Of a DNA stretch of 64,000 bases, positions 1,341 to 54,823 are shown one piece after another. The notes beneath the pieces are model-generated. The model searched no databases, was not told the DNA's origin, and was given only the letters and a program-made list of their open reading frames with translations. The stretch is taken from contig JAZNBX010000023.1 of the NCBI GenBank assembly GCA_045587265.1, positions 6,047 through 70,046 on the forward strand, in the 5' to 3' direction. Source of the DNA: Acutalibacteraceae bacterium (GTDB taxonomy: Bacteria; Bacillota; Clostridia; Oscillospirales; Acutalibacteraceae). Each line of letters starts with the position of its first letter. Positions within the stretch are counted from its first letter, which is position 1. Position numbers and translations under genes: made by a program.

Positions 1341-1511
1341 AATTATCACACCTTTTTGCTTTGAGCACAAATGTTCTTTTTTACAATTATAACCAATCAG
1401 TAACATTTTTTCAACAAAAAATAAAAATTTTTCCTATTAAGGTTTTTAGGTTGCAAAAAAAGACAAAATAATGTATAATAATGTAGAAATAAATAAAAAG
1501 GACTTGAAAGA

Positions 1512-2600
1512 ATGAAAAAAAGAATATTTGCTTTATTTTTAATTGTAAGTTTGGTTGCAACCTTGGTTGGTTGTAATAAAAGAGATATGATGTCTTCAAG
1601 TGCACCATCGTTGGTGATTGAGGAAATAAAGCAAGAGGTTTCAAAGTATGCGGTTAACCCATTAACAGGTACTGAAACCTTGAAAAAGGATGCCGAAAAA
1701 TTACGTCCAACCGCTATTATGATAAATAATATCGAAACCGCTTGGGGCGTTCAAGCATCACTTTCAAAAGCAGATATAGTTTATGAAACCTATGTTGAGG
1801 GCGGCATCACAAGGCTTATGGCTGTGTTTAAAGATATCCGTACAGTAGGGGATAATAAAATCGGCTCGCTTCGTTCGGGTAGATATTCTTATCTAGATTT
1901 GGCATTAGGCCACGATGCAAGGTTTGTTCACGCAGGTCTTGATAACGTTTACTGTAAACCTTATATAAATAGCCTTGGCACAACTACAGTTGACCTTAAC
2001 ACTACCTATACTCAGGGCAATATTGTAGGCGGTAACAGTTGCGCTGCCAGAATTCCAAACGGACTTTCTTTAGAGCATACACTATATACAACGGGTAATA
2101 AACTTTACAAGTTACTCAAGAGTTCTGCAGATATGAAATTAAGCGAACCTCAAGAAAATTGGCAGAACTTTGTTAGCGAAGAAAATAAGTACGTGCCGGC
2201 AGATGGCGAGTGCAAAAAACTATACGTACCTTTCTCAAGTATGTATACCGCAGAGTTTAAGTTCAATGAAAAAAGTGGCAGTTACGATAAATATCGCTAC
2301 GGCGAAATTCAAAAGGATTACGATAACAAAAACAAAGAAATATCCTTTAAAAACGTGTTGGTGCTTTATTCAAGCGTAAACTATTTTAGCGATGGAACAC
2401 ACGTTAAAACCGAGATGGGCTCGGGCGAAGGCTATTATGTGTCAAATGGTGGCTATCGCAAAATCAAATGGTCTAAAGGCGATGCTAGGTCATCTATTAA
2501 GTTAACAGATGAGAATGGCAAGGAAATCGACTTTAACCCCGGTAACACCTACGTTTGCTTTACAAATACAAGCAATAAAGGTAGCACTACATTTAAATAA
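1512..2600 (+). CDS. DUF3048 (YerB-like) lipoprotein
   Basis: Lipobox LVGC after the signal peptide. RPTAIMINN...ADIVYETYVEGGITRLMAVF matches the DUF3048 signature. Confidence 0.8.
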   Translation: MKKRIFALFLIVSLVATLVGCNKRDMMSSSAPSLVIEEIKQEVSKYAVNPLTGTETLKKDAEKLRPTAIMINNIETAWGVQASLSKADIVYETYVEGGITRLMAVFKDIRTVGDNKIGSLRSGRYSYLDLALGHDARFVHAGLDNVYCKPYINSLGTTTVDLNTTYTQGNIVGGNSCAARIPNGLSLEHTLYTTGNKLYKLLKSSADMKLSEPQENWQNFVSEENKYVPADGECKKLYVPFSSMYTAEFKFNEKSGSYDKYRYGEIQKDYDNKNKEISFKNVLVLYSSVNYFSDGTHVKTEMGSGEGYYVSNGGYRKIKWSKGDARSSIKLTDENGKEIDFNPGNTYVCFTNTSNKGSTTFK

Positions 2601-2605
2601 AAATA

Positions 2606-2644
2606 AGTGGCATAAGGCTAAAAAACCTTGTGCCACTTTTTTTC
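2606..2644. terminator. Bidirectional intrinsic terminator between convergent genes
   Basis: 12-bp stem AGTGGCATAAGG/CCTTGTGCCACT with a T-run on both strands. Confidence 0.75.
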
Positions 2645-2672
2645 TTGCCCCTAAACGAAGCGGGGGCAGGCG

Positions 2673-3374
2673 TTATTGTAACCCTAAAACTTCTAGCGGA
2701 GAAAGCCAACCGTTTTTATCTTTTATGCCAAAATGTAGATGTGCGGAATCAAGACATTCGCAAGGCACCTCTCCAACAGTACCTACAATATTGCTCATAG
2801 TAACCGTTTCGCCTTTCTTTACCGAAACGTCGTTAAGACCGCAGTAATAACTAAAATTACCATCTTTATGCTCAATTACAACGGTGTTGCCCCAAAGTGA
2901 ATCTTTTTTAATTTCGTTAACAGTACCTTCGGCGCAGGCTTTTACTGTGGTGCCTTCCTCTGCTACTATATCTATGCCGTCGTGTGCGCGCATATCACCA
3001 TAGGTTTCAGAGTATATTAGGCTACTATTAGAAAAAGGCTTAATTATATTGGCTTTTATCGGCATAGCATAGGTTAACACCTTTGCGGTTGCCGCCTCTG
3101 TTGCTTGTTCTTGACTTTCGGTGGCGGTTTTAACACTTTCGGTGTTCTCTGTAACTTCGGGTGTGCTTACAATTGGTTCTTCGCTTTCAAATGTGTCTTC
3201 TTTACTTGTAAGAGGTTGTTGGTAGTCACTTTCGGTATATGAGATTTTGCCGGGTTCGGTAACCTTTTCTGCTTTGTCAACAGTAATTCTTGCAATACCA
3301 CCCGTTGCAAGCAGTACCATAGCGGCGGCTATATAAAAACTTTTTATCCCACGCTTTTTTCTTCTAGGTTTCAT
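2673..3374 (-). CDS. M23 (LytM-type) metallopeptidase, membrane anchored
   Basis: N-terminal TM segment. HDGIDI ... HLHF metal-binding motifs near the C-terminus. Confidence 0.9.
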   Translation of the reverse strand: MKPRRKKRGIKSFYIAAAMVLLATGGIARITVDKAEKVTEPGKISYTESDYQQPLTSKEDTFESEEPIVSTPEVTENTESVKTATESQEQATEAATAKVLTYAMPIKANIIKPFSNSSLIYSETYGDMRAHDGIDIVAEEGTTVKACAEGTVNEIKKDSLWGNTVVIEHKDGNFSYYCGLNDVSVKKGETVTMSNIVGTVGEVPCECLDSAHLHFGIKDKNGWLSPLEVLGLQ

Positions 3375-3630
3375 AATATATTAACTCCCTTTTTTAGTCT
3401 TTGTTAGTATTGTTGGCAGTGTTAAAAACTTTTATGCAACTAAAAAAACACAAAAACTTTTGAAAATTAATATATTATTCATAAAATGATAATTTTATCG
3501 TAAGAAATTGAATTTATAATAATTGTGTACTCAAAAAACGTAGGGAGCCGCACCCTATAGAGTACATCTACCCTCCTCAATCCACGATTTTTCGTGGGGG
3601 CTATGCTTTTTTAGCATAGCCTTTTTTATT

Positions 3631-3662
3631 GCAAAAAATAAAACCTACGCAAAACGTAGGCT
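3631..3662 (-). terminator. Intrinsic terminator of queH
   Basis: CCTACG/CGTAGG stem followed by a T-run on the minus strand. Confidence 0.6.
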
Positions 3663-3667
3663 TTATG

Positions 3668-4282
3668 CTATTTGTTTTTTGAAAAAACGCAACCGCAGTA
3701 GTCTTGCCGATAAAGGTTGTGTTCTTTTGAAAGCTCGATAGAACGCTTATAGCCTTCCTTTTTCTTGAAATCCGAAAGAAGATACTTTACGCCATACTCT
3801 TTTTCTAACTCTAAACCAATAGTGTTAAGCGTTTCGGCGCTTTTTAGCGGGCTAATTGAAAGGGTGGTGCAAAAGTAATCAAATCCGTTCTTTGACGCCT
3901 CTTTAGCGGCTTTTTCTAACCTTAAGCGGTAGCAGATTTTGCATCTTTCGCCACCTTCTTTGCAGCCCTCGTATCCTTTAACGGCACTGTAAAACTCATC
4001 GGGATTAAAGTCCACTTTCATAATCTTAATATCGTCAAAGCCGAATTCGTCAATTAGCCTTAATAGTTCGTTTTCGCGCGCGGTGTACTCGCTTTCAGGA
4101 TAGATGTTGGGGTTATAAAAAAGTGCGGTTATATCAAAATGCTCGTGCAAATATTCCAAGCAATAACTAGAGCAGGGGGCACAGCACACTTGCAACAAAA
4201 GAAGAGGTTTTTTACCGTTTTTTATGTTGTCTGCAATAATTTTCTCAAGTTCTTTTTGATAATTGATACCCAAAAGTTTCAC
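3668..4282 (-). CDS. queH: Epoxyqueuosine reductase QueH (DUF208)
   Basis: LLLQVCCAPCSSY, CKICYRLRLEKAA and YRQDYCGC cysteine motifs typical of QueH. Confidence 0.9.
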   Translation of the reverse strand: MKLLGINYQKELEKIIADNIKNGKKPLLLLQVCCAPCSSYCLEYLHEHFDITALFYNPNIYPESEYTARENELLRLIDEFGFDDIKIMKVDFNPDEFYSAVKGYEGCKEGGERCKICYRLRLEKAAKEASKNGFDYFCTTLSISPLKSAETLNTIGLELEKEYGVKYLLSDFKKKEGYKRSIELSKEHNLYRQDYCGCVFSKNK

Positions 4283-8814: not shown

Positions 8815-9633
8815 CTATTCTCTTTCAAACATCATTGATTTATCTGAACCAACCATCATAAGCAGGTCGTTTGTTGGAGAATAATAAAAACTAAATTCTG
8901 TATTTCCTTCTTTTAAAATATATTTATCATTTCCAGATGAATCTGTTTCTACAAACTGCCATTTAAGTGCAAGATTAGACGCTTTGTTTTCATCCGAATT
9001 GTAAGATATCATTGTGGCGCTTCCGTCGGAATTGCACAAAATACCTGTTGCATAAGTGATTGGTAACTCAGTAGAATCACCTGTTGTGGTGTCAAGTGTA
9101 GCGGAACACTTCCATCTTCCTACAATTTCTTTGTCGGAGGGTTGCTTGTTAATGGGTGAATATGAATTATATTCATCTCTTTTGTAAAGAATCATACCGT
9201 CGGCTTCCGGAGTATTAATTGACAAGGCATCTGATGAATATAGATAAGAAATTCCTATTTCTGACTTGTCCTCAAAGTAAACTGAATATATATCGGTGTC
9301 ATCCAAAGCAGAGTAAAATTCCCAAGTAACCTTTTGTAAATCCAACAGTGTACCATTTTTAACTATATTAAGGTATCCTGTTCCATCGTTATTGAATTCA
9401 CAACTGCATACATATAGTTCAGGAGGAGTGGTAGCCGAACCTGTTGACGTGTCCATAGTTCCAATATATGTCCATGTGCCAACTATGTTTTCTTCCTCTA
9501 CTTCCTCGACTTCACTCGTTATACTATCTGACGATAAGTCTGTGTTCTGGTCCTGTGTCTCGCCTTTACCACAACCACATAGCACACCAATTAATACTAG
9601 TATAATTAATAATATAGATATAAGTCTTTTCAT
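8815..9633 (-). CDS. Lipoprotein with two tandem lipocalin-like modules
   Basis: Lipobox LCGCGK. Internal duplication: IVGTWTYIGTMDTSTGSATT... versus IVGRWKCSATLDTTTGDSTE... Confidence 0.6.
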   Translation of the reverse strand: MKRLISILLIILVLIGVLCGCGKGETQDQNTDLSSDSITSEVEEVEEENIVGTWTYIGTMDTSTGSATTPPELYVCSCEFNNDGTGYLNIVKNGTLLDLQKVTWEFYSALDDTDIYSVYFEDKSEIGISYLYSSDALSINTPEADGMILYKRDEYNSYSPINKQPSDKEIVGRWKCSATLDTTTGDSTELPITYATGILCNSDGSATMISYNSDENKASNLALKWQFVETDSSGNDKYILKEGNTEFSFYYSPTNDLLMMVGSDKSMMFERE

Positions 9634-9668
9634 TGTTTATTCATCCCTTACATAAATTTTTCGTTATT

Positions 9669-10133
9669 TTATTGTGGTTCGCCAAAATCGTTCGCGCTTT
9701 TGAACATATCCAACATAGCTATATTGCTTGTTGCATGGAAAGTTTTATCATAACTATATTGTCCGTCGCTTGTCATATCATTTATAAACACATAATACTC
9801 TTCGCGGCGACTTTCATCTCCCGCTACTGCCGTAACTTCAATATAAACAATAGCTCTGCCATAATCGTCTTTTTCGTATATTTTAGCATCGTTATAATTA
9901 GCAAAGGTTTTATATCTGTTAAATATTGGGGAACCAGCAGTTTTAACACCAGTTTCAAGAATTTCTTTCGCAGCAGTTATATACATACTGTCACTACTTT
10001 GTCCTGCACTATATCCAGAACCAAAAAGAGATAAAAAATCACCAACTCCCGTAAGTAACTTGAAGCCGAGAAATATGGCAACTATAACACTAAGTATTGT
10101 TAAAACTTTTTTGTTTTTTAAAAATTTTTCCAT
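9669..10133 (-). CDS. Hypothetical N-terminally membrane-anchored protein
   Basis: A GGAGGG RBS precedes the ATG. Single N-terminal TM segment. No recognisable domain. Confidence 0.5.
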   Translation of the reverse strand: MEKFLKNKKVLTILSVIVAIFLGFKLLTGVGDFLSLFGSGYSAGQSSDSMYITAAKEILETGVKTAGSPIFNRYKTFANYNDAKIYEKDDYGRAIVYIEVTAVAGDESRREEYYVFINDMTSDGQYSYDKTFHATSNIAMLDMFKSANDFGEPQ

Positions 10134-10311
10134 GATTTACCCTCCTGATTTTTTAGTGTTATTCCAGACCTGTTCTTACGAGAAGCGTTTTTTATCGGTT
10201 ATACTATTGCAGTAATCGTAAGTAAGACTGAAATTCATTTTTTGTTTTAAGTATCCTTTTGAAAATAAATTGTTAACTAATATAAAACCGAACTGAAACT
10301 GTACCCCCCTA

Positions 10312-10487
10312 AAATTAAAAAAGTGTGTGCAACTAAAAGTCACACACACCGAAAAACGCGACTCTTAATTGCTACCACACAACATTTTCTGGCAAACACT
10401 AAAGTATGCGAAAATAGAGCCTGCATTTTTACCAATAGATAAAAATACACACTTTAGTTATTGCCAAATATTAAAATGTTATGTGGT
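10312..10487 (-). ncRNA. Candidate orphan structured RNA (sRNA or attenuator leader), about 175 nt
   Basis: Starts just downstream of a near-consensus sigmaA promoter. Contains a ~116-nt imperfect rod hairpin (arms ~10372-10411 and ~10449-10487). Ends in a GUGUGUG/CACACAC terminator followed by UUUUUUAAUUUU (10312-10348). No convincing ORF. Confidence 0.45.
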
Positions 10488-10493
10488 ACTTTT

Positions 10494-10522
10494 ATTATAG
10501 CACAGATTAATTAAAAAATCAA
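10494..10522 (-). promoter_or_regulatory. SigmaA-type promoter of the RNA candidate
   Basis: Minus strand reads TTGATT, a 17-nt spacer, then TGcTATAAT (extended -10). Confidence 0.6.
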
Positions 10523-10551
10523 ACAAAATATTAAAGTGAAAGGTTACACAT

Positions 10552-10590
10552 AAAAGTAAAACACCGAGCGTTTGGCTCGGTGTTTTCTTT
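10552..10590 (-). terminator. Intrinsic terminator of the glycosyltransferase gene
   Basis: ACACCGAGC/GCTCGGTGT stem with T-runs. Confidence 0.8.
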
Positions 10591-10594
10591 TGTA

Positions 10595-11701
10595 TTATTT
10601 TGTTTGTAGATAGACGTTTTTAAGTTTATTGGCGATTTCTGCCATATCATAACCTGCGTTTTTGATTGCCTCGTCTTGAGGTTTGCGTTCCATTACCTCG
10701 CAGGTGTTAAGAATCATATCTGCCCAAATGCTTGGCGGCTGCTCTAAACTTAACCACTTAACGTTGTTTGTTACCTCGGCATCTCTGTCAATGGTGTCGG
10801 ATAAGAATAGGGGCAATCCCGCCGCCTGCGCTTCAATAGCGGCAACGGGTAAATCCTCTAAAAGTGAAGGCATAACAAATGCATCCATAGCGGCGTAGTA
10901 TTCGTTTACGTTGTTTTGTGCGCCCATAAATAAAACTGCATCGCCAATGCCAAGTGCCTGCGCTTTCTGTTGCACGTGTGCAACTAACGGACCTGTACCT
11001 GCAAGCAGAAGCACCGAATCGGGTCTTCTTATATGAATTTCTTTGAAAATTTCAAGTAAAAACTCGTGGTTTTTGCGGCCTGAAAACTTACCAACGTGAC
11101 CAACAACAAACTTATCTAGCACTGCTAGTCTGTGCCTTACTTCGTTGCGCTTATCGGGATGATAGGTGAAGTCTGAAAGGCAGATGGCGTTTTTAAGAAT
11201 TGGAACGGTATTTTCTTTGCAAAAGTTTTTACCAAACATCCAATTTGCCGCTTCTTCAGAACTTGCGAGAAAGTGGGTTGCATACTTGTTCATTCTAGAA
11301 CGGTTTATGCAGCTAAATATATCCGCAAGTTTACCAACGGTCGATTTTGTGTTGTGAGCGTGCGCAATAACTACGGGAACGCCAAGTTTCTTACAGGCTA
11401 AAAAGGGGATAAGGTCTGCGCCCGAGTTTTTGTTTATATGCACAACCGAGTAATTATTCTCGGAAATAATCTTTTTAATTGCAAGATAGTTGCCAAGCAG
11501 GTTTTTAGCCGACGGAACTTTAAAAATACGAGCGCCACCTGCAATTAACTCGTTTTTATAAACGGGACAGTTGTATGTAGTAACAAAATCAAACTGTATT
11601 TCATCGTGGTCAAACTCTTTATAAAGGTTACGTAAAAAAGTTTCTATGCCACCAATATTTTCGCTAAGGCTAAATTGTAGCACACGAATAGGTTTATCCA
11701 T
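10595..11701 (-). CDS. Glycosyltransferase, GT4/Glycos_transf_1 family
   Basis: EDLPVAAIEAQAAGLP (E-x7-E region). Start moved to the MDKPIRVLQFS methionine, which is internal to the track ORF. Confidence 0.8.
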   Translation of the reverse strand: MDKPIRVLQFSLSENIGGIETFLRNLYKEFDHDEIQFDFVTTYNCPVYKNELIAGGARIFKVPSAKNLLGNYLAIKKIISENNYSVVHINKNSGADLIPFLACKKLGVPVVIAHAHNTKSTVGKLADIFSCINRSRMNKYATHFLASSEEAANWMFGKNFCKENTVPILKNAICLSDFTYHPDKRNEVRHRLAVLDKFVVGHVGKFSGRKNHEFLLEIFKEIHIRRPDSVLLLAGTGPLVAHVQQKAQALGIGDAVLFMGAQNNVNEYYAAMDAFVMPSLLEDLPVAAIEAQAAGLPLFLSDTIDRDAEVTNNVKWLSLEQPPSIWADMILNTCEVMERKPQDEAIKNAGYDMAEIANKLKNVYLQTK

Positions 11702-45959: not shown

Positions 45960-47315
45960 ATGAATAAGAATGATTTAATACAATTAAGTATAACCGATTT
46001 GACGGGTGGTGGCGACGGTGTTGGCCACGCACCTGATGGTAGGGTGGTTTTTGTTCCCAATACTGCAGTTGGGGACGAGATTTTGGCGCATATTTTAAAG
46101 GTAAAGAAAAAATATGCTTTTGCAAAAATCCACGAGATTTTAACCCCTGCCGAGAGTAGAATAGAAAGCAACTGCCCAATTTCTTCAAGATGTGGCGGTT
46201 GTGTATTTCGTCATATAAGTTATAAAAAAGAGTGCGAAATAAAGAAGCACCAAGTTGAAAATTCTTTTAGGCGCATAGGCGGTCTTGATACCCCTATAAA
46301 CGAGATAATTGGTGCCGAAAATATTGATTTTTATAGAAATAAGGCGCAAATTCCGGTAGGTGTTGATAGAGACGGCAAGGTTATTTGCGGTTATTATACT
46401 AAAAGTAGCCATAGAATTGTACCTTTAAATGATTGCCGCTTGCACCCAGAAGTTTTCGATATTATTATTAAAAAGTTTACCAACTGGGCAAACGAAAATA
46501 GAATTTCGGTCTATGATGAAAAAAGCGGCAAGGGGCTATTGCGCCACCTTTATATAAGGCGTGCGGCAAAATCTAGCGATATAATGGTGCTTGTTGTTAT
46601 TAACGGCAAGGAACTGCCAAAAGCCCAAGCCCTTGTAAATTCGCTTACCGAACTATCCGAGATAAAAAGCGTGCAGATTAACGTAAACCTAGAAGACACT
46701 AATGTTATTCTTGGCAAAAAATGTGTAGTTTTGTATGGAGAGGATAGTATTGTAGACGTTATCTGCGGCGTTAAAATTCGTATATCTCCTTTGGCTTTTT
46801 ATCAGGTTAATCACACAATGGCACAGAAACTTTATAATAAGGCTAAAGAATTGGCAGAGCCAAAAGATAAGGTTGTTTTAGACCTTTATTGCGGTGTTGG
46901 CTCAATAGGTCTTTCTATGGCAAAAGATGCTAAAGAAATCGTCGGCGTAGAGATTATACCTCAAGCGGTTGAGGATGCAAAATTCAACGCAAAACTAAAC
47001 GGCACCCAAAATGCAAGATTTATCTGTGGTGATGCCGCAAAGGCAGTAAAGGATTTAGAAAAGCAGGGAATAACCCCCGACGTTGTAATTCTGGACCCGC
47101 CAAGAAAGGGTTGCGATGCCTCGCTTATCGAAACGGTTGCAACCGAATTTTGCCCCGAAAGAATAGTATATATATCCTGTAATGACGCTACCTTGGCTCG
47201 CGATTGCGCCATTTTCAAGGAGTACGGCTATAAAACAGTAGAAGCCACCCCCGTAGACCTCTTTGCAAGGACGGGGCACGTAGAGGTCGTAGCAAAATTA
47301 GAAATGGAAAAATAA
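45960..47315 (+). CDS. rlmD: 23S rRNA (uracil-C5)-methyltransferase RlmD/RumA family
   Basis: TRAM domain, Fe-S Cys cluster CPISSRCGGCVFRH, SAM motif LDLYCGVGSIG, catalytic YISCN. Confidence 0.9.
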   Translation: MNKNDLIQLSITDLTGGGDGVGHAPDGRVVFVPNTAVGDEILAHILKVKKKYAFAKIHEILTPAESRIESNCPISSRCGGCVFRHISYKKECEIKKHQVENSFRRIGGLDTPINEIIGAENIDFYRNKAQIPVGVDRDGKVICGYYTKSSHRIVPLNDCRLHPEVFDIIIKKFTNWANENRISVYDEKSGKGLLRHLYIRRAAKSSDIMVLVVINGKELPKAQALVNSLTELSEIKSVQINVNLEDTNVILGKKCVVLYGEDSIVDVICGVKIRISPLAFYQVNHTMAQKLYNKAKELAEPKDKVVLDLYCGVGSIGLSMAKDAKEIVGVEIIPQAVEDAKFNAKLNGTQNARFICGDAAKAVKDLEKQGITPDVVILDPPRKGCDASLIETVATEFCPERIVYISCNDATLARDCAIFKEYGYKTVEATPVDLFARTGHVEVVAKLEMEK

Positions 47316-47338
47316 TTAAAATATTTTCAGTTTTGTTA

Positions 47339-47366
47339 TTGACAAACGGATAAAATATGCTATAAT
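47339..47366 (+). promoter_or_regulatory. SigmaA-type promoter for the tRNA pair
   Basis: TTGACA, a 16-nt spacer, then TGcTATAAT. Lies 17 nt upstream of the tRNA 5' end. Confidence 0.75.
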
Positions 47367-47382
47367 ATTTAGGTCAACTTGA

Positions 47383-47459
47383 GGGCCATTAGCTCAGTTG
47401 GTTAGAGCAACCGGCTCATAACCGGTTGGTCCGGGGTTCGAGTCCCTGATGGCCCACCA
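47383..47459 (+). tRNA. tRNA with CAT anticodon (Met, or lysidine-type Ile2; the CTCATAACC loop resembles Ile2)
   Basis: 77 nt. Acceptor GGGCCAT/ATGGCCC, AGCTCAGTTGGTTAGAGC D-arm, anticodon CAT at 47417-47419, GGTTCGAGTCC T-arm, encoded CCA. Confidence 0.9.
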
Positions 47460-47468
47460 TTTTAATAT

Positions 47469-47542
47469 AGGGGCATGATGTAATGGTAACATTCCGGTCT
47501 CCAAAACCGTCCTTGAGGGTTCGAGTCCTTCTGCCCCTGCCA
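47469..47542 (+). tRNA. tRNA-Trp (CCA)
   Basis: 74 nt. Acceptor AGGGGCA/TGCCCCT, anticodon loop CTCCAAA, T-arm GAGGGTTCGAGTCCTTC, encoded CCA. Confidence 0.92.
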
Positions 47543-47609
47543 AAAAAGAAACCACCCAACAGGGTGGTTTTTTGCATATAATAAAATAAGAAGGACTCGA
47601 ACACCGAGG
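47525..47609. repeat. 85-bp direct repeat, copy 1 (tRNA-Trp 3' 18 nt + terminator + 36 nt)
   Basis: Identical base for base to 47722-47806 (offset 197) on my comparison. Confidence 0.9.
47549..47573 (+). terminator. Intrinsic terminator after tRNA-Trp
   Basis: AAACCACCC/GGGTGGTTT stem followed by TTT. Confidence 0.85.
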
Positions 47610-47721
47610 GGGTCTCACCGTAAAGAAAAATAGTCCGGTGGACTGTTTTTTAGGTGAGAGGTGCGCAGACGGGTACTGCGAACAAGGTGAGCGGTCGTCA
47701 AGCAGGGCAAAAATTTTTTGC

Positions 47722-47806
47722 GTCCTTCTGCCCCTGCCAAAAAAGAAACCACCCAACAGGGTGGTTTTTTGCATATAATAAAATAAGAAGGACTCGAACA
47801 CCGAGG
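47722..47806. repeat. 85-bp direct repeat, copy 2 (orphan tRNA-Trp 3' end + duplicated terminator)
   Basis: Identical to 47525-47609. There is no tRNA body upstream of it. Confidence 0.9.
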
Positions 47807-47826
47807 CAGAAAAGAACTCTTTTTTG

Positions 47827-47855
47827 TTGCACACGAACAAATAGTGTGTTACAAT
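47827..47855 (+). promoter_or_regulatory. SigmaA-type promoter for the surface-protein gene
   Basis: TTGCAC, a 17-nt spacer, then TGtTACAAT. Confidence 0.6.
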
Positions 47856-47929
47856 TAATTTAGCAGGTCAATTTAGTTTGATAGATAGGTAATTGATTTG
47901 TAGTTTTTTTGTTTTAGGAGGAAAATAAA

Positions 47930-49282
47930 TTGAAAAAAATAGCATCTATTTTCTTGGCGTTAGTACTTTTTGTAAGTGCAATACCCTCTATGGCAATTAG
48001 CGCTAATGCTGCGGTCAATGAGATTGCAAACGGTATATCTAAAATCGAAATTGTTCAGTCTCAAAGAATTTTAGGAAATGAAGGCGTGCTTTTGGATGAC
48101 GGCGTATACCTATATTGGAGCAATGTAGAGACTTTTAATTATAAAGTTATGTTCACCAGTGGAGCGTCTACAACCGTTACATATACGCAACTGGAAAATA
48201 TGGGGGTAGAAATACACACTATTAAATTCATTGGTGAATACTACGAGTACGACGATAGGTGTTTCTTTAAAGCGGGCAAACAACCCGTACAAATCAATCT
48301 GATAAATGGAAACGTTTGCACAAGTTATGTAGACATAACCTCATTTTCAAGTTGGCTTTTGTCACTTGGCATAAATGTTTCCAGTGATTTCGATGATATG
48401 ATAATTGAATATGAAGGCTCTGAGGAACAAGCATATTATTGGAGAATTAAGCCAGACCAAACAAACAACTATGATTTGTACTCTGAAAAATGGAATCAAA
48501 TAAATGGAAACATTCTTATATTTGATGCCAATAACAACGTAATTCCCAATAATAGCGGTTGGAATTTAAAAGCGGGTCAAGAGTACGCAATCCGTATAGC
48601 ATACAAATATAATACGGGTTGTTATCAGGATGTACCATTTTGGTTAGAGGCTAACAGAGACCACAGCCACAACTATCTTCCAAAAACGGTGGCAGCAACA
48701 GTAACTAAAAATGGGCGCATAGACTATACTTGTACATCTTGCGGAAACGTAAGCGTAAGCAAGACAATTAACTATCCAAAGACCATTAAGTTATCTGCAA
48801 CAAGCTACACCTACAATGGTAAGGCTAAAAAGCCTGGCGTGGTTGTTAAAGACTCATCAGGTAAATCACTCAAAGAAGGCACAGATTACACTATAACTTA
48901 TCCAAGTGGTAGAAAGAACGTTGGTAGTTATAATGTTGTTGTTAAATTTAAGGGTAATTATAGCGGAACAAAGACTCTTACTTTCAAAATCAACCCTACA
49001 AGCACCAAGATTTCAAAAGTTAGCGGCGGCAAAAAAAGCTTAACCGTAAAATATTCTAAAAAATCTAAGCAGGTTACAGGATATGAGGTTCAATACAGCA
49101 CTTCAAAGAGCTTTAAATCTGCAAAGACCAAGACTGTTAAGAGTTATAAAACAACAACTGCCAAAGTAACAAAGCTAAAGGCAAAGAAAAAGTATTATGT
49201 TCGTGTTCGTACGTATAAAACAGTTGGCAAAACAAAATACTATTCAGCTTGGTCATCAGTAAAATCTGCAAAAACCAAATAA
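47930..49282 (+). CDS. Secreted protein with an MBG/Ig-like module and a C-terminal FN3-like K-rich module
   Basis: TTG start after AGGAGG. Signal peptide ...ISANA. SYTYNGKAKKPGVVVKD...GTDYTITY...GNYSGTKTLTFKI matches an MBG-type pattern. KKYYVRVRTYK...YYSAWS is FN3-like. Confidence 0.6.
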   Translation: MKKIASIFLALVLFVSAIPSMAISANAAVNEIANGISKIEIVQSQRILGNEGVLLDDGVYLYWSNVETFNYKVMFTSGASTTVTYTQLENMGVEIHTIKFIGEYYEYDDRCFFKAGKQPVQINLINGNVCTSYVDITSFSSWLLSLGINVSSDFDDMIIEYEGSEEQAYYWRIKPDQTNNYDLYSEKWNQINGNILIFDANNNVIPNNSGWNLKAGQEYAIRIAYKYNTGCYQDVPFWLEANRDHSHNYLPKTVAATVTKNGRIDYTCTSCGNVSVSKTINYPKTIKLSATSYTYNGKAKKPGVVVKDSSGKSLKEGTDYTITYPSGRKNVGSYNVVVKFKGNYSGTKTLTFKINPTSTKISKVSGGKKSLTVKYSKKSKQVTGYEVQYSTSKSFKSAKTKTVKSYKTTTAKVTKLKAKKKYYVRVRTYKTVGKTKYYSAWSSVKSAKTK

Positions 49283-49285
49283 TTA

Positions 49286-49317
49286 AAAAAGCAGGTGCGA
49301 AAGCATCTGCTTTTTGT
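49286..49317 (+). terminator. Intrinsic terminator
   Basis: GCAGGTGC/GCATCTGC stem followed by TTTTT. Confidence 0.75.
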
Positions 49318-49345
49318 TTACTTGCAAGAAATTTTGTGGTATACT
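49317..49345 (+). promoter_or_regulatory. Probable promoter of the PHP/EutH-like operon
   Basis: TTTACT, a 17-nt spacer, then TGgTATACT. Implies a ~135-nt leader containing the AACAC/box module. Confidence 0.5.
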
Positions 49346-49426
49346 ATTAAAAACAGTGTTAAAATGAGTATTACCTACAACGTAACACGAAATAACACAC
49401 CTTAAAACTATAAAAAAACAAATAAC

Positions 49427-49455
49427 TTTGTGACAAAAATACGTGTAAAGAAAAA
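49427..49455 (+). repeat. Box copy A: TTTGTGAC-N7-CGTGTAAAGAAAAA
   Basis: 26 of 30 positions match copy B (51772-51800). Lies about 32 nt upstream of the TTG start at 49487. Confidence 0.7.
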
Positions 49456-49486
49456 CATAATGTGAAATATAAGGGAGATATAATTT

Positions 49487-50299
49487 TTGAAGCAAAATTT
49501 ACATATTCATACAACTTACGCAGACGGAAAAGATTCACCAGAAGAAATCGTTTTGGCGGCTATTACAAAAGAATTTGACTCTATTGGTTTTTCCGAGCAT
49601 ACTTATATGAAATTTTCCAACTATCCATATCAAATGACAATAGAGAAAATGCAAAAATATAAAGATGAAATACACCGTCTAAAAGAAAAATACAAAAACC
49701 AAATAGAAATTTTTTGCGGTTTAGAATACGAATTGTTTTCAGAAGTTACTGCAAATGATTTTGACTATATAATAGGTTCGGTGCATTACCTTGATTTTGA
49801 CGGAAAAAAGATTGGTTTTGATAAAGGGGTAGACGAAACTCAAGATTTTATCAATGAAAATTTTAATGGAGATGCTTTGAAATTCGCTGAAAAATATTAC
49901 CAAACACTGTTATTGTTACCTCAAAAGCTTAGTGTTGATATAATAGGGCATTTTGACTTGATAACCAAAACAAATGAAATAAGACCTTTTCTTGATGTAC
50001 GCTCAAATGAATATCTAAATCTTGGATACGAGGCGATTCATAATTTAAAAGGTAAAATTCCTTTTTTCGAAGTCAATACAGGTGCTATTGCAAGAGGATA
50101 TAGAACTATACCGTATCCTCAAATAGAATTCTTGAAAGAATTCAAGAAGTGTGGTTTTGGTGCGGTAATAACTTCTGATTGTCATAATAAAGACTTTCTT
50201 GATTGCAATTATTGTGAAGCGAAAGAAGTACTTGAAGAAGCCGGTTTTAACACAAAATGGATTCTTACTGTAGATGGTTTTAAAGAGGTTGAACTATGA
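49487..50299 (+). CDS. PHP-domain phosphatase (HisJ/histidinol-phosphatase family)
   Basis: NLHIHTTYADGKDSPEE, GFSEH, GSVHY, IGHFD metal-ligand pattern. TTG start after AAGGGAG. Confidence 0.8.
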   Translation: MKQNLHIHTTYADGKDSPEEIVLAAITKEFDSIGFSEHTYMKFSNYPYQMTIEKMQKYKDEIHRLKEKYKNQIEIFCGLEYELFSEVTANDFDYIIGSVHYLDFDGKKIGFDKGVDETQDFINENFNGDALKFAEKYYQTLLLLPQKLSVDIIGHFDLITKTNEIRPFLDVRSNEYLNLGYEAIHNLKGKIPFFEVNTGAIARGYRTIPYPQIEFLKEFKKCGFGAVITSDCHNKDFLDCNYCEAKEVLEEAGFNTKWILTVDGFKEVEL

Positions 50300-51363
50300 A
50301 CATACTAACTATAATAGTGGTTTCCTTTTCTGTTTTAGGTGCGGTTGACAAACTGCTTGGAAATAAAATAGGAATTGGAAGCGAGTTTGAAAAAGGCTTT
50401 AAGCTTTTTGTGCCAATGGCTTTTTCAATGCTTGGAATACTTGTAATTGCGCCCGCTGTGGGTGTTTGGCTAACACCTGTTTTTGATTGGTTTTATGCTG
50501 CATTTAAAATAGACCCTTCCATAATACCTGCATCGCTATTTGCAAACGATATGGGAGGCATGACTCTTGCAAATTCAATTTGCAAATCTGAAAACATAGG
50601 AAATTATAATGCTTTTGTTGTATCCTCTATGATGGGTTGCGTAGTTTCATTCACCATACCATTTGCCATTAGTGTAGTCAAAAAGGAACAACATAAAGAA
50701 ATGTTTTTAGGTATTCTTTGCGGCATAGCAACCATTCCCATAGGTTGCTTTGTAGCAGGACTGATTTGCCATATCAATATTTTAGATTTGTTTATGACCC
50801 TGTTGCCATTGATTGTGTTTTCAGTGCTTTTAGTGGTTTTACTTATTACTTTGACAAATTTTTGTATCAAAATATTTGTAGTGCTTGGAAATATTATCAG
50901 ATGGATATCAATGATAGGTCTAGTGTGCGCAATATTCACTTTTTTAACAAAAATTGAAATATGTCAGTATTTTGATAGCCTTGAAAATGCTGCGTTTATT
51001 TGCGTAAATGCTTGTGTAACCCTGTCAGGAATGTTGCCGTTTATGTACGTTGTTTCTAAACTTATTAATAAACCTATGGATAAAATAGGAGCAAAAATCG
51101 GGATTGATTCACTCTCTGCATTTTCCTTCATTTCAACCCTTGTCACAAATGCGACCGCATTAAGTTCTATGGAAAGAATGAATAAAAAAGGGGTTGTTCT
51201 CAATTCGGCATTTGCTGTTTCGGCGGCATTTGTATTTGGTAGCCATTTGGCGCTAACGATGGCATTCAATGCTGATTACATATTACCTATGATTGTCGGT
51301 AAAATTGTTTCGGGTGTATCGGCAGTTATTTTAGCACTATTGATTTATAAGGATAGAGAATAA
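50296..51363 (+). CDS. EutH-like permease (ethanolamine-utilisation protein EutH family)
   Basis: N-terminus ...GAVDKLLGNKIGIGSEFEKGF resembles EutH. About 10 TM segments. Its ATG overlaps the upstream stop (ATGA). Confidence 0.7.
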   Translation: MNILTIIVVSFSVLGAVDKLLGNKIGIGSEFEKGFKLFVPMAFSMLGILVIAPAVGVWLTPVFDWFYAAFKIDPSIIPASLFANDMGGMTLANSICKSENIGNYNAFVVSSMMGCVVSFTIPFAISVVKKEQHKEMFLGILCGIATIPIGCFVAGLICHINILDLFMTLLPLIVFSVLLVVLLITLTNFCIKIFVVLGNIIRWISMIGLVCAIFTFLTKIEICQYFDSLENAAFICVNACVTLSGMLPFMYVVSKLINKPMDKIGAKIGIDSLSAFSFISTLVTNATALSSMERMNKKGVVLNSAFAVSAAFVFGSHLALTMAFNADYILPMIVGKIVSGVSAVILALLIYKDRE

Positions 51364-51404
51364 AACATTGAATTACGAAAAACAACAAAAAAGGAGTGAG
51401 AACG

Positions 51405-51677
51405 ATGGACAAATTTGTTTTACATTCAAAATATAAGCCTACAGGCGACCAACCAGAGGCTATTGAAAAATTGACCGAAGGGCTCAAAAATGGCTTAACA
51501 GAGCAGGTTTTACTTGGTGTTACCGGTTCGGGTAAGACCTTTACAATGGCGAATATTATCGCAAATGCAAACAAACCGACCCTAGTTCTCGCTCACAACA
51601 AAACACTCGCCGCACAACTTTGTAGTGAATTCAGAGAATTCTTCCCCGAAAACGCGGTGGAGTATTTTGTATCCTAA
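51405..51677 (+). pseudogene. Truncated uvrB 5' fragment (RBS + 90 codons including Walker A, then stop)
   Basis: [23 protein letters not shown]...[14 protein letters not shown]...EYFVS* aligns colinearly with residues 3-92 of the intact UvrB at 52856. Confidence 0.9.
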
Positions 51678-51768
51678 TACAAGATTTGCACTAAAAACCG
51701 TCACAAAACACCGTTTTTAGGGGCTTTTTAACACCAAATAACACAGAATAACACTGTATAAACCAAAT

Positions 51769-51793
51769 AAATTTGTGACCTAAATTCGTGTAA
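51769..51793. repeat. 25-bp perfect direct repeat, copy B (AAATTTGTGACCTAAATTCGTGTAA)
   Basis: Identical to 52741-52765. Lies upstream of the LRR gene. Confidence 0.9.
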
Positions 51794-51828
51794 AGAAAAA
51801 ATAATTACTTTTCAGGAGTGAAACTATT

Positions 51829-52698
51829 TTGAATTTTTCTTTTAAATCTTTTGCTGATGGCAGTTTTGACTACGACAAGAAAACGGAAACACATACAGGT
51901 TTGTATCTTCGTGAAGAAAAAGCCGACATTAGCGGCGGTAAAATTAAGTTTTCAGATATAGATGTACTTAAAAATTATCCTAATGTTGACACTGTTACCG
52001 TTTCGGGGCTTAATCAAGAAACCTTTGAATATTTTATACTTAACTATGGTAAACAATTAAAAGCAATTCGATTTTTCAAGAATAAGCAAATTGAGGATTT
52101 GTCTCTTTTAGGCACACTTCCACAATTAGAATATCTTTATTTTTTCGCAAATCAAAAAGTAACACAGCTTTGGGATATGTCGAATAATACTTCTTTAACA
52201 GGAGTTTGCATTGAGGATTTTTCAAAGCTCAAATCCATAGTTGGCATTGAAACTGCACCCAACCTAAAATATTTTACAATCGGCAACGCAATTTGGGATA
52301 CTGCAGAAATTGAAAGTTTTATGCCTCTTGCGAACACTAAAATTGAATATTTGTCCTTTACGGGCAAAAAGATTACAGACAATGATTTTTCGTTTTTGTC
52401 TGATATGTTGCAATTAAAAGAGTTTGATTTTTCATTACACTTTTTGACAACCGAACAGGTTGCTTGGATTGTTGCTAATTTCCCACACTTGAAAGGTTTT
52501 GCTTTAAAAGCAAAACACGATTGTGAACTGTTTAAAAGCAATGAAGATTTGACAAAAGTTCCTGCAACAATTATTGTTGGTAAAAGAAAGCCGTCACTCA
52601 AAATTGAGGGGAATGAACAACGAATTAAAAATTACGAGTTAAAATTTGAGGCGTTAGTAGAGAAATATAAGGGCAAAAAATATTGTGAGATTTTTTGA
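51829..52698 (+). CDS. Cytoplasmic leucine-rich-repeat (LRR) protein
   Basis: TTG start after CAGGAG. No signal peptide. Repeated LxxLxxLxL-type units (LSLLGTLPQLEYLYF, LTGVCIEDFSKLKSIVGIE, NLKYFTIGN, IEYLSFTG, LKEFDFS). Confidence 0.65.
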   Translation: MNFSFKSFADGSFDYDKKTETHTGLYLREEKADISGGKIKFSDIDVLKNYPNVDTVTVSGLNQETFEYFILNYGKQLKAIRFFKNKQIEDLSLLGTLPQLEYLYFFANQKVTQLWDMSNNTSLTGVCIEDFSKLKSIVGIETAPNLKYFTIGNAIWDTAEIESFMPLANTKIEYLSFTGKKITDNDFSFLSDMLQLKEFDFSLHFLTTEQVAWIVANFPHLKGFALKAKHDCELFKSNEDLTKVPATIIVGKRKPSLKIEGNEQRIKNYELKFEALVEKYKGKKYCEIF

Positions 52699-52740
52699 TG
52701 TTGAATACTCGGCTGAATATTTTGTACTGAATACGACTAC

Positions 52741-52765
52741 AAATTTGTGACCTAAATTCGTGTAA
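52741..52765. repeat. 25-bp perfect direct repeat, copy C
   Basis: Identical to 51769-51793. Lies 91 nt upstream of the uvrB start. Confidence 0.9.
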
Positions 52766-52855
52766 TTTACTATTCGCCAACTTTTTGAGTAAAATTTTAG
52801 AGAATTTAAGACAAGAAAATGGCAGAAAATAATCAAAAAAGAGAGGAGTGAGAAC

Positions 52856-54823
52856 GTGCCGGATAAGTTTATTTTACATTCAAATTATAGTCCTACCGGT
52901 GATCAACCTGAAGCGATTGAAAAACTCACTGAAGGCATCAAAAATGGCTTAAAAGAGCAGGTTTTACTGGGTGTTACAGGTTCAGGTAAGACCTTTACAA
53001 TGGCGAATATTATTGCAAATGTTAATAAGCCGACGCTAGTTCTCGCTCACAATAAAACCCTTGCCGCACAACTCTGTTCAGAGTTCCGCGAATTCTTCCC
53101 CGAAAACGCGGTGGAATATTTTGTTTCCTATTATGACTACTATCAACCCGAGGCGTATATCCCGGGAACCGATACCTATATCGAAAAAGATTCGGCTATA
53201 AATGACGAGATTGATAAACTCCGCCACTCCGCCACCTGTGCACTATCCGAGCGTCGTGACGTTATAATCGTTGCATCGGTTTCTTGTATATATTCTTTAG
53301 GTAACCCTATAGATTACCGCAATATGATAATTTCTTTGCGCCGTGGCGAAGAAAAGGATAGAGATTGGCTTCTGCGCAAACTCGTAAAACTTCAATACGA
53401 GCGCAACGATATTAACTTTATTAGAAACAAGTTCCGTGTTCGTGGCGACGTTGTTGAAATTTTCCCTGCCTACTCGGGCGATACTGCAATTAGGGTTGAG
53501 TTCTTTGGCGATGAGATTGACCGTATAACCGAAATAAACGCGCTAACGGGCGAACTAAAATCCGACCTTAGCCATATTGCAATTTATCCCGCATCGCACT
53601 ATATCGTGCCCGATGATAAAAAAGAGCAGGCTTTGCAAAACATTCTTGCCGAGATGGAAGAACGTGTTAAATATTTCAAGGAAAACGATAAACTTATAGA
53701 GGCGCAACGCATCCGTCAGCGTACCGAGTACGACGTTGAAATGCTAAGGGAAATCGGTGTCTGCAAGGGTATAGAAAACTATTCTCGTGTGCTTTCGGGC
53801 AGACCCGAGGGCAGTGTGCCGTTCACTCTTTTGGACTATTTTCCTGATGATTTTCTGTTGTTTATTGACGAGTCGCACGTTACAGTTCCGCAGGTTCGTG
53901 GTATGTACGGTGGTGATAGGGCAAGAAAGGAAAATCTGGTAGAATACGGCTTCCGCTTGCCATCGGCTTTTGATAACAGACCCCTTAATTTTGAGGAGTT
54001 TTATAAGCATCTTAATCAAGTGGTGTTTGTTTCTGCAACCCCGCAACAGTTTGAGCGAGAAAAATCTGCGCAAATCGTAGAGCAGGTTATTAGACCGACA
54101 GGTCTAATAGACCCCGAAATTATAGTAAAACCTGTTGAAGGTCAAATCGACGATATTGTTTCTAATATAAACGAAATAACCGCCCGTGGCGAGCGTGTGC
54201 TAATAACCACTCTGACCAAAAAGATGGCGGAAAGCCTTACGGAATATCTTGAAAATCTTGATATAAAGGTAAGGTATATGCACTACGACGTTGACACCAT
54301 AGAGCGTATGGAGTTAATCCGCGACCTGAGGCTTGGCGGGTTTGACGTGCTTGTCGGCATTAACCTTTTGCGCGAGGGTTTGGATATACCCGAAGTATCC
54401 TTAGTAATGATACTTGATGCCGACAAAGAGGGCTTCTTGCGTTCGGAAACTTCGCTTATACAAACAATAGGTAGAGCCGCAAGAAACGCTAAAGGTCAAG
54501 TAATAATGTATGCCGATAGCGTAACGCCATCTATGGAGCGCGCTATTACCGAAACCTTGCGCCGTCGTGAGATACAAAAAGCCTACAACGAGGCACACGG
54601 AATAGTGCCAAAAACCATCAAAAAAGACGTTCACGAAATAATTGAAATATCAAGTCCTGCAGATAAGGTTAAAGAGAAACCTGCAAAGCAACTAACCAAG
54701 TACGAGCGTGAAATGCTAATTAAACGCTTGACGGCAGAAATGAAGCAGGCGGCAAAACTTTTAGAGTTTGAGCACGCCGCAATGATTCGTGACCGAATTG
54801 AAAAGTTAAGAAAGCAAAAATAA
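52856..54823 (+). CDS. uvrB: Excinuclease ABC subunit B
   Basis: GTG start after [18 protein letters not shown], helicase motifs, C-terminal UVR domain ([15 protein letters not shown]). Confidence 0.97.

Follow-up and report, generated by a model that had tools for sequence, protein, structure and literature searches.

In the 64,000-nt stretch of contig JAZNBX010000023.1 analyzed here (the window, meaning the whole stretch and not the feature under study), the uvrB gene of an Acutalibacteraceae bacterium is preceded by a second, truncated copy of its own 5' end. The DNA at 51678-53130 is probably a small integrative element that lacks its own recombinase and was inserted in uvrB at codon 90, a reading to which we give a probability of about 0.72. 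This reading is carried by the anatomy of the insertion and its precise junction, by the recurrence of its conserved ends around other cargo, by the occurrence of the element in an unrelated genome, by empty sites, and by relatives that carry integrases and have their border at the same place. Relatives of the region were numbered L001-L023. The truncated copy, or stub, is called copy A, and the 5' end of the intact gene is called copy B.

Anatomy of the probable insertion in uvrB

The insertion and the two uvrB copies comprise the following features:

51405..51677, + strand: uvrB' stub (copy A), 90 codons plus TAA (51675-51677), product ending ...EYFVS
51657..51676, + strand: putative left attachment junction (attL core), GTGGAG TATTTTGT ATCCTA, from the junction table
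51678..51793, + strand: left end of the element, conserved in L015 and L023
51688-51729, + strand: terminator-like hairpin and T-run, from folding
51729-51756, + strand: three TAACAC repeats with 10-bp spacing
51769-51793, + strand: 25-nt motif, copy 1, AAATTTGTGACCTAAATTCGTGTAA
51829..52698, + strand: cargo gene for a 289-aa leucine-rich-repeat (LRR) protein, TTG start, Pfam LRR_4
52702..52740, + strand: att-like relic opening the right end, GAATACTCGGCTGAATATTTTGTACTGAATACGACTAC, repeat family D6
52741..52765, + strand: 25-nt motif, copy 2, identical to copy 1
52766-52795, + strand: element-borne promoter-like site (TTTACT, 18 nt, TAAAAT), a consensus match conserved in L015 and L023
52766..52855, + strand: right-end promoter and ribosome-binding site (RBS) region, with RBS GAGGAGTGAGAAC for the rebuilt uvrB
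52856..53128, + strand: copy B, the replacement 5' end of uvrB (codons 1-91), continuing in frame into the remaining uvrB, from alignment with the stub
53111..53130, + strand: putative right attachment junction (attR core), GTGGAA TATTTTGT TTCCTA, from the junction table
52856..54823, + strand: intact uvrB, 655 aa, with all UvrB Pfam domains in the identical database protein P0001

Copies A and B are direct repeats that align colinearly, 1454 bp apart, where the sequence-only reading of this DNA had placed them. Copy A begins 42 nt 3' of the end of eutH and was found to hold 90 codons and a stop, rather than the 89 codons counted before. Over 267 aligned coding bases there are 39 mismatches (85.4% identity), distributed 5/4/30 over the three codon positions and causing 6 amino-acid changes. 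These values match the earlier hand count of about 39 mismatches, ~85% identity, a concentration at third positions, and 6 changes. By the Nei-Gojobori method, the nonsynonymous divergence (dN) was 0.056, the synonymous divergence (dS) was 0.72, and dN/dS was 0.078. This ratio is not near 1, and it supports the earlier proposal that the copies diverged in different lineages and were then joined. The same RBS, AGGAGTGAGAACG, is found in both copies, and the homology ends abruptly at ...TATTTTGT(A/T)TCCTA; both had been noticed from the sequence. The longest identical run between the copies is 29 nt at 51531-51559, in the Walker-A coding stretch, and the 26-nt run at 51636-51661, which had been taken for the longest, is the second. 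Since TCC TAA stands in the stub instead of the native TCC TAT of the intact gene, the stop codon of the stub was created at the junction. The direct repeats of the target gene flank the insert, and one copy leaves the 655-aa uvrB open reading frame (ORF) intact.

Direct repeats 1454 bp apart could also come from the uvrB start having been duplicated locally in tandem, with decay in place, or from an assembly chimera of two strains joined at the conserved uvrB. The window is part of a metagenome contig, and conserved runs of 26-29 nt could mislead an assembler. Decay in place does not fit a dS of 0.72 with a dN/dS of 0.08 and no frameshift or stop. The copies are also not each other's closest relatives, in line with the separate origins proposed earlier: copy B is 87% identical to L005, L006, and L007 and 85% identical to copy A, a small margin. 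A chimera would require two wrong joins, as both flanks of the PHP-eutH-stub block match the same clade, and the junction and architecture recur in independent assemblies (15 contigs of L015-L022, plus L023). We consider a duplication or a chimera highly improbable.

The LRR gene is the only ORF of at least 150 aa in the element with a protein-family match, and no relaxase, oriT, or conjugation gene was recognized in the element. An insert with an LRR gene and no recombinase had been described from the sequence, and this was confirmed. The absence of a recombinase is a family trait, since L015 and L023 are likewise without one. PADLOC and Pfam gave no function for the cargo genes beyond LRR repeats, and Rfam gave zero matches in 47000-54000. 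Viral-contig scans with the L006 integrase (described below), the left-end sequence, and the 25-nt motif also gave zero matches and, thus, no sign of phage. Only generic integrases (~30% identity) were matched in a phage collection, and uvrB itself was the only match in a plasmid collection.

Three features were absent from the sequence-only reading: the 25-nt direct repeat, a third copy of this motif 5' of the PHP gene, and the att-like relic at 52702-52740. The direct repeat is exact and lies on both sides of the LRR gene (51769-51793 and 52741-52765), where the chance expectation is none. Copy 2 of the motif corresponds to the left arm of a hairpin, and the whole hairpin is present in L005, L008, L006, and L014 (in L005, -26.9 kcal/mol, z = -8.6). 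The relic resembles the uvrB core followed by the first bases of the left end; it is borderline by chance alone, yet it sits at the same place in L015 and L023.

Other functions of the motif were considered. An attenuator or riboswitch was dropped because the motif copies in the window lack the 3' arm of the hairpin, and no Rfam family was matched. A LexA box was rejected for want of GAAC-N4-GTTC, and a sigma-70 -35 element was rejected for its poor spacing to a -10 hexamer. The 3' end of an LRR_5 gene in L005 and L008 carries the motif as a perfect 14-bp hairpin (z = -8.6). The loop of the motif hairpin is a recurrent breakpoint of homology between loci, an observation that no explanation so far fits.

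The element in other genomes

The same element was found at the same uvrB codon in an unrelated genomic background. L023 carries a stub, the left end, an LRR gene, the right end, and uvrB, followed by MatE and uvrA, whereas cotJABC lies beside uvrB in the window. Window positions 51672-52881 differ from L023 at 33 sites (97.3% identity), and 287 of the 289 residues of the LRR protein are identical. The stubs of the two loci are 67% identical, and so are the uvrB bodies.

Conserved ends with other cargo were seen in L015-L022, a sister species represented by 15 contigs. In these contigs, genes of 375 and 197 aa, in this order, stand between a 91-aa stub and an intact uvrB-cotJABC. The left end of L015 (window 51678-51793) and its right end (from 52702) are 83-85% identical to those of the window, and the genes between them differ. 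With the stub included, the left-end alignment gives 83% over 387 nt. The stub and the gene start of L015-L022 differ at 39/267 bases, 29 of them at third positions.

An integrase beside an attachment site, which the window element does not have, was found only in L006 (contig JAZQTG010000006.1), where uvrB is followed by cotJ, and in L014 (ERZ27227477 k141_377627), where the context is uvrB-uvrA. The two loci have a common 4.7-kb module with ~93% identity overall. In the part that was profiled, between the end of the second integrase gene and uvrB codon ~88, most of the sequence is 97-100% identical; identity then drops to ~70-80%, and the border of this drop is the one seen in the window. 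Two tyrosine integrase genes (407 and 426 aa, the first with an Arm-DNA-binding domain) and small ORFs are present in the module. One of the small ORFs, of 68 aa and with zero Pfam matches, overlaps the start of the first integrase gene, where an excisionase gene is typically placed. The module also comprises a promoter, inverted TAACAC repeats, the motif hairpin, an RBS, and uvrB codons 1-~88. Its right end is ~82% identical to that of the window, and TAACAC repeats are common to both. The sequence-only reading had compared the arrangement in the window to elements that integrate inside a conserved gene while carrying a surrogate gene end. This comparison is supported by the insertion at the same codon in L023 and by the surrogate 5' end with the same border in L006 and L014.

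Empty sites, for which a synteny search had been proposed, were also found. L007 and L009 have a terminator, a promoter, an RBS, and an uninterrupted uvrB. In L010 and L011, uvrB starts 35 nt after eutH, and the contigs end 102 nt later. No stub was found in L005 or L008. The uvrB bodies of L007, L009, and L005 are 88%, 82%, and 95% identical to that of the window, respectively. Between eutH and uvrB, L001 carries a C39-like peptidase lipoprotein (9107-10765) and L002 carries three ORFs (1364-3898), in both cases without a uvrB stub. The eutH-uvrB junction is therefore variable by other routes too.

The prevalence of the stub was examined through a database search with its product, in which the best 120 matches were considered. 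All 120 are short proteins. Fifty of them terminate exactly at ..YF[VI]S, 43 have tails unrelated to uvrB, and 17 continue into genuine uvrB sequence. About 30 of the 43 tails are 17-18 aa long, such as YYKICTKSRDKTPFLVTF. The left end of the window, when read in the uvrB frame, gives S, a stop, YKICTKNRHKTPFLGAF, and another stop, and the 17-18-aa tails look like read-through of the same left-end family. Many of the stub matches lie on contigs of 50-400 kb and are, therefore, not cut by contig ends. In clusters at 90% identity, the stub has 197 members and the LRR protein has 120. The LRR protein of the window has an exact counterpart in the collection, and the named members of its cluster (including MBQ8304440.1, MDO5123604.1, and MBR2876190.1) come from at least 3 Clostridia metagenome-assembled genomes (MAGs). 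Many of the contigs that carry a stub or an LRR gene measure just 0.5-5 kb, as expected from the fragmentation of repeated mobile sequence. The contig of L013 begins inside the right end of the element, 100 nt 5' of uvrB (L013:1-140).

These relatives bear on the possibility that the insertion is an inert scar, that is, the immobile remnant of a full-size, integrase-bearing element that lost its recombination genes in place. Decay to att-flanked remnants, the cis-mobilizable elements (CIMEs), is well documented (PMC5704250), and tandem integrations and deletions in the past are suggested by the repeated motif and by the att-like sequence at 52702-52740. On this account, however, the integrase-less 1.2-kb unit, which is ~97% identical in L023 where uvrB is 67% identical, must have traveled in its reduced form or been reduced identically twice. 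The 120 members of the LRR cluster, with named ones from several MAGs, and the different cargo between the same ends in L015 also speak against a scar, which we consider improbable.

Site of exchange and origin of the two uvrB starts

The junctions were compared in a table of 12 loci. Their common core is GTGGAR-TATTTTGT-WTCCTA, with GGAA/TTCC arms and an 8-nt spacer, and 18/20 positions are identical between the attL and attR cores of the window. The putative core is bounded by the last element-specific base of the right side and the first one of the left. On the right, the near-identity of L006 and L014 stops at ...GCGGTGGA (...GGTGGA), immediately before the attR core stretch. On the left, the element sequence shared by the window and L023 starts no more than 6 nt from the end of TCCTA, which is followed by A at the junction; the count of differences is 7 over the 41 nt left of the junction and ~3 over the 120 nt right of it. 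The exchange would fall within ~15 nt, which fits a tyrosine-recombinase core. A homologous crossover at the left border is disfavored because such crossovers need homology on both sides. The 26-nt run at 51636-51661, proposed earlier as a crossover core, is probably not the core itself; the data place the likely exchange just 3' of it, in RTATTTTGTWTCCTA. Integration most likely occurred by site-specific recombination, with integrases that would be supplied in trans for the mini-elements, and the TAACAC repeats are candidate arm-binding sites for these integrases.

The first 91 codons of uvrB and the remainder of the gene have discordant histories across genomes. Identity over codons 1-91 and over the rest of uvrB, respectively, is 86% and 95% between the window and L005, 93% and 98% between L007 and L008, and 98% and 71% between L006 and L014. 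In L023, the intact gene is of the element type to codon ~9 only and is then ~97% identical to its own stub (codons 10-90). Copy B appears to belong to the element together with the upstream motif, promoter, and RBS because of the match to L023 and the homology of the right end to L015, L006, and L014; this assignment is established for the upstream part and the first ~9 codons.

The origin of copy A was considered from the DNA upstream of it:

49317..49345, + strand: native-type promoter of the uvrB region (TTTACT, 17 nt, TG-TATACT), from a consensus scan
49359..49455, + strand: left-end-like insert in the leader, with TAACAC repeats and copy 3 of the 25-nt motif (diverged), from repeat families D2, D3, and D5
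49487-50299, + strand: PHP-domain gene, Pfam PHP
50296-51363, + strand: eutH, PF04346 EutH

The promoter at 49317..49345 is also found directly 5' of the uninterrupted uvrB in L007 and L009 and 5' of PHP in L001. From its match to the consensus, it is predicted to drive PHP-eutH and the uvrB stub in the window. The gene order PHP-eutH-uvrB is retained in L001-L003 and in L010/L011. Copy A would be the resident 5' end at the time the cassette arrived, because it stands behind the native-type promoter and after PHP-eutH in an order kept by more distant relatives. An import of copy A with PHP-eutH from a distant donor, by a homology-facilitated illegitimate join, may have occurred but is not needed. 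It was set aside because copy A is closer to its own clade (84-85%) than to the eutH-carrying relatives (77-78%) and because the native-type promoter precedes PHP.

These observations suggest the following mechanism. Site-specific recombination at GTGGAR-TATTTTGT-WTCCTA would insert the element, with full-size relatives such as the L006/L014 element providing the tyrosine integrases in trans. At the left end, the stop codon and the terminator-like hairpin would close off the old gene start, and the 90-codon stub would stay behind. At the right end, a promoter-like site, an RBS, and replacement codons 1-90 would leave uvrB intact behind the upstream region of the element, not behind the native promoter. 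After insertion, ordinary homologous recombination would reshuffle the duplicated 270 bp, which would result in chimeric 5' ends and would make close relatives diverge unusually strongly over uvrB codons 1-90. Excision is predicted to restore an empty site with copy A-specific bases followed by ...TTCCTATTATGAC, and to release a circle in which codon 90 of copy B is joined to ATACAAGATTTGCAC.

Several observations weigh against an integrative element or complicate it. No recombinase gene is present in 51678-52855, and no homologues of the L006 integrases were found in the 64-kb window, L015, or L023. No stub was found by BLASTN or TBLASTN within 7-10 kb 5' of the L006/L014 module, and with its left end unseen, the integration of that element inside uvrB is deduced from the right border only. 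Two signals at the ends are weak: the left-end hairpin (-9 kcal/mol, z = -1.4) is not significant compared to shuffled sequences, and the promoter at 52766-52795 is a consensus match only. The right border of element-type sequence varies, lying at codon ~9 in L023, ~30 in L013, and ~88 in L006/L014, and the identity of the window to L005 climbs to 96% from codon ~38; variable borders call for extra homologous-recombination events. Copy A does not look conspecific, since its identity to the 5' ends in L005, L007, and L008 amounts to only 81-85%. No EutH above 86% identity was found outside the source contig among 5.8 billion clustered proteins, in contrast to UvrB, whose relatives reach 94-98% identity. 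The divergence of copy A and of PHP-eutH makes the history of the resident 5' end more complicated than "native" implies. Finally, the contig of the window comes from a single metagenome assembly.

Further searches with EutH returned the 100%-identical P0121 on the source contig, and a metagenome scan gave zero matches. Either close relatives lost PHP-eutH or the source strain imported it. Earlier element traffic, or an imported PHP-eutH-uvrB' block, may be behind the divergence of copy A.

Some of these points would be expected of a cassette driven by homology and not by a site-specific recombinase. In such a cassette, a circle with a uvrB codons 1-90 arm would enter by a single RecA-dependent, Campbell-type crossover and leave by the reverse reaction. 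The fixed junction between ...FVS and the left end would be the end of the homology arm, and host sequence would replace the middle of the arm in each cycle. This explanation accounts for the lack of a recombinase in the window, L015, and L023 and for right element-to-host switches at variable codons (~9, 30, and 88, and ~38 for the window compared to L005). Updating of the arm from the host would also give the pattern of L023, where the stub and the intact gene are ~97% alike over codons 10-90 with a cassette like that of the window, and the 26-29-nt stretches identical between copies A and B could seed recombination. However, the left border between host and shared sequence lies no more than 6 nt from the end of homology, and RecA crossovers need homology on both sides. 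Two integrase genes adjoin the same right end in L006 and L014, with the border at the GGAA-N8-TTCC dyad, and entry into a host with a ~70%-identical arm would be very inefficient. For these reasons, we regard movement by homology alone as unlikely and prefer site-specific integration, with homologous recombination acting on the duplicated segment afterward.

Variable surroundings and comparison with known systems

The left-end-like insert at 49359-49455 sits between the native promoter and the PHP gene and is absent from the leaders of L001, L003, L007, and L009. Similar segments also occur at L005:360-465 and L008:4750-4860. Compared to L005, L007, L008, and L009, the whole interval from rumA-tRNA-Met-tRNA-Trp to uvrB (47601-52848) is a variable slot. 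In the window, PHP, eutH, the stub, and the LRR gene occupy it together with an fn3 surface protein. The occupant in L005 and L008 is a 900-aa LRR_5 protein encoded on the opposite strand; L009 has a 134-aa ORF there, and L007 has nothing but the fn3 protein. At the edge of the slot, the last 17 nt of tRNA-Trp and the downstream terminator (47525-47601) are repeated 197 bp on (47722-47806) with ~84-93% identity. This repeat looks like the attL/attR footprint of another, mostly deleted element in the tRNA gene's 3' end; one copy of the terminal repeat is present in L005 and two in L008. A second variable spot lies just 3' of uvrB-cotJ, where a DUF6788-Fic pair follows the cotJ genes in L006 (10593-11831) and L009 (11576-12814) and is not found in the window, L005, L007, or L008.

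No description of uvrB as an integration target or attachment site was found in the literature searched, and yet stubs ending at the same codon are abundant in public assemblies. The 90- to 109-aa ORFs annotated as "DEAD/DEAH helicase family" would be footprints of such elements, neither genes in their own right nor assembly errors. Because the history of uvrB codons 1-90 is not that of the remaining codons, phylogeny or strain typing based on uvrB can be misled. If the native promoter is replaced as proposed, carriers and non-carriers may regulate nucleotide excision repair differently. The points of interest are how common the elements are, their cassette-like ends with swappable cargo, and their apparent movement between genera without a recombinase. 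A 1.2-kb unit with these properties would be a convenient system for studying mobilization in trans. A broader proposal is that uvrB codon 90 serves as a widely used cassette platform in gut Clostridia. There, recombinase-less mini-elements with fixed ends would exchange a single cargo across genera, perhaps moving by homology via a host-updated uvrB-start arm, and would take over transcription of the DNA-repair gene. This proposal is speculative, and we consider it doubtful.

Prophage e14 and phage 21 integrate into the 3' end of E. coli icd and bring a replacement gene end. The uvrB element resembles them in its site-specific insertion in a conserved housekeeping gene, in a replacement end that differs mostly synonymously, in the displaced end left as a stub, and in a gene-end polymorphism that is discordant among strains. 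It differs in that the 5' end is replaced, along with promoter and RBS, rather than the 3' end, and in that the target is uvrB in Clostridia. In addition, the window element is only 1.45 kb long, with one cargo gene and no integrase.

Integrative and mobilizable elements (IMEs) and CIMEs insert in the ends of housekeeping genes, the 5' end being used "more rarely", and the gene is rebuilt by one of the flanking repeats (PMC5704250). CIMEs keep attL and attR and have lost the integration genes, and tandem accretion of IMEs and CIMEs gives arrays with chimeric internal att sites (PMC5704250), to which the relic at 52702-52740 is comparable. uvrB has 0 occurrences in the main text of that source (PMC5704250). 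By its sequence, the window element appears to match the definition of a CIME, with attL and attR kept and no integration or transfer genes. In contrast to a CIME formed by random decay, it has functional-looking, conserved ends and an exchangeable single-gene cargo and looks more like a designed cassette. Its excision and transfer would depend on a helper integrase.

Integron cassettes are likewise units of one or two genes without a recombinase, with conserved, recombination-site-like bounds, one fixed chromosomal position, and cargo that varies by strain. The window element was rejected as an integron cassette since it has no intI and no recognizable attC (R''/R' GTTRRRY). No integrase is present in this region of the window, and no GTTRRRY/RYYYAAC pair was seen among the repeats read by eye. 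Furthermore, the insertion lies inside a coding sequence with 270 bp duplicated, and one cassette per site was seen. Campbell-type integration in the laboratory also leaves a truncated 5' copy, vector DNA, and an intact gene with a vector-derived 5' part. That reaction is RecA-dependent and needs high identity, whereas a site-specific step is indicated here by the sharpness of the left border and by the relatives that bear integrases. Integration that replaces a gene end is already known as a kind, and the element at uvrB codon 90 would be a further example of it.

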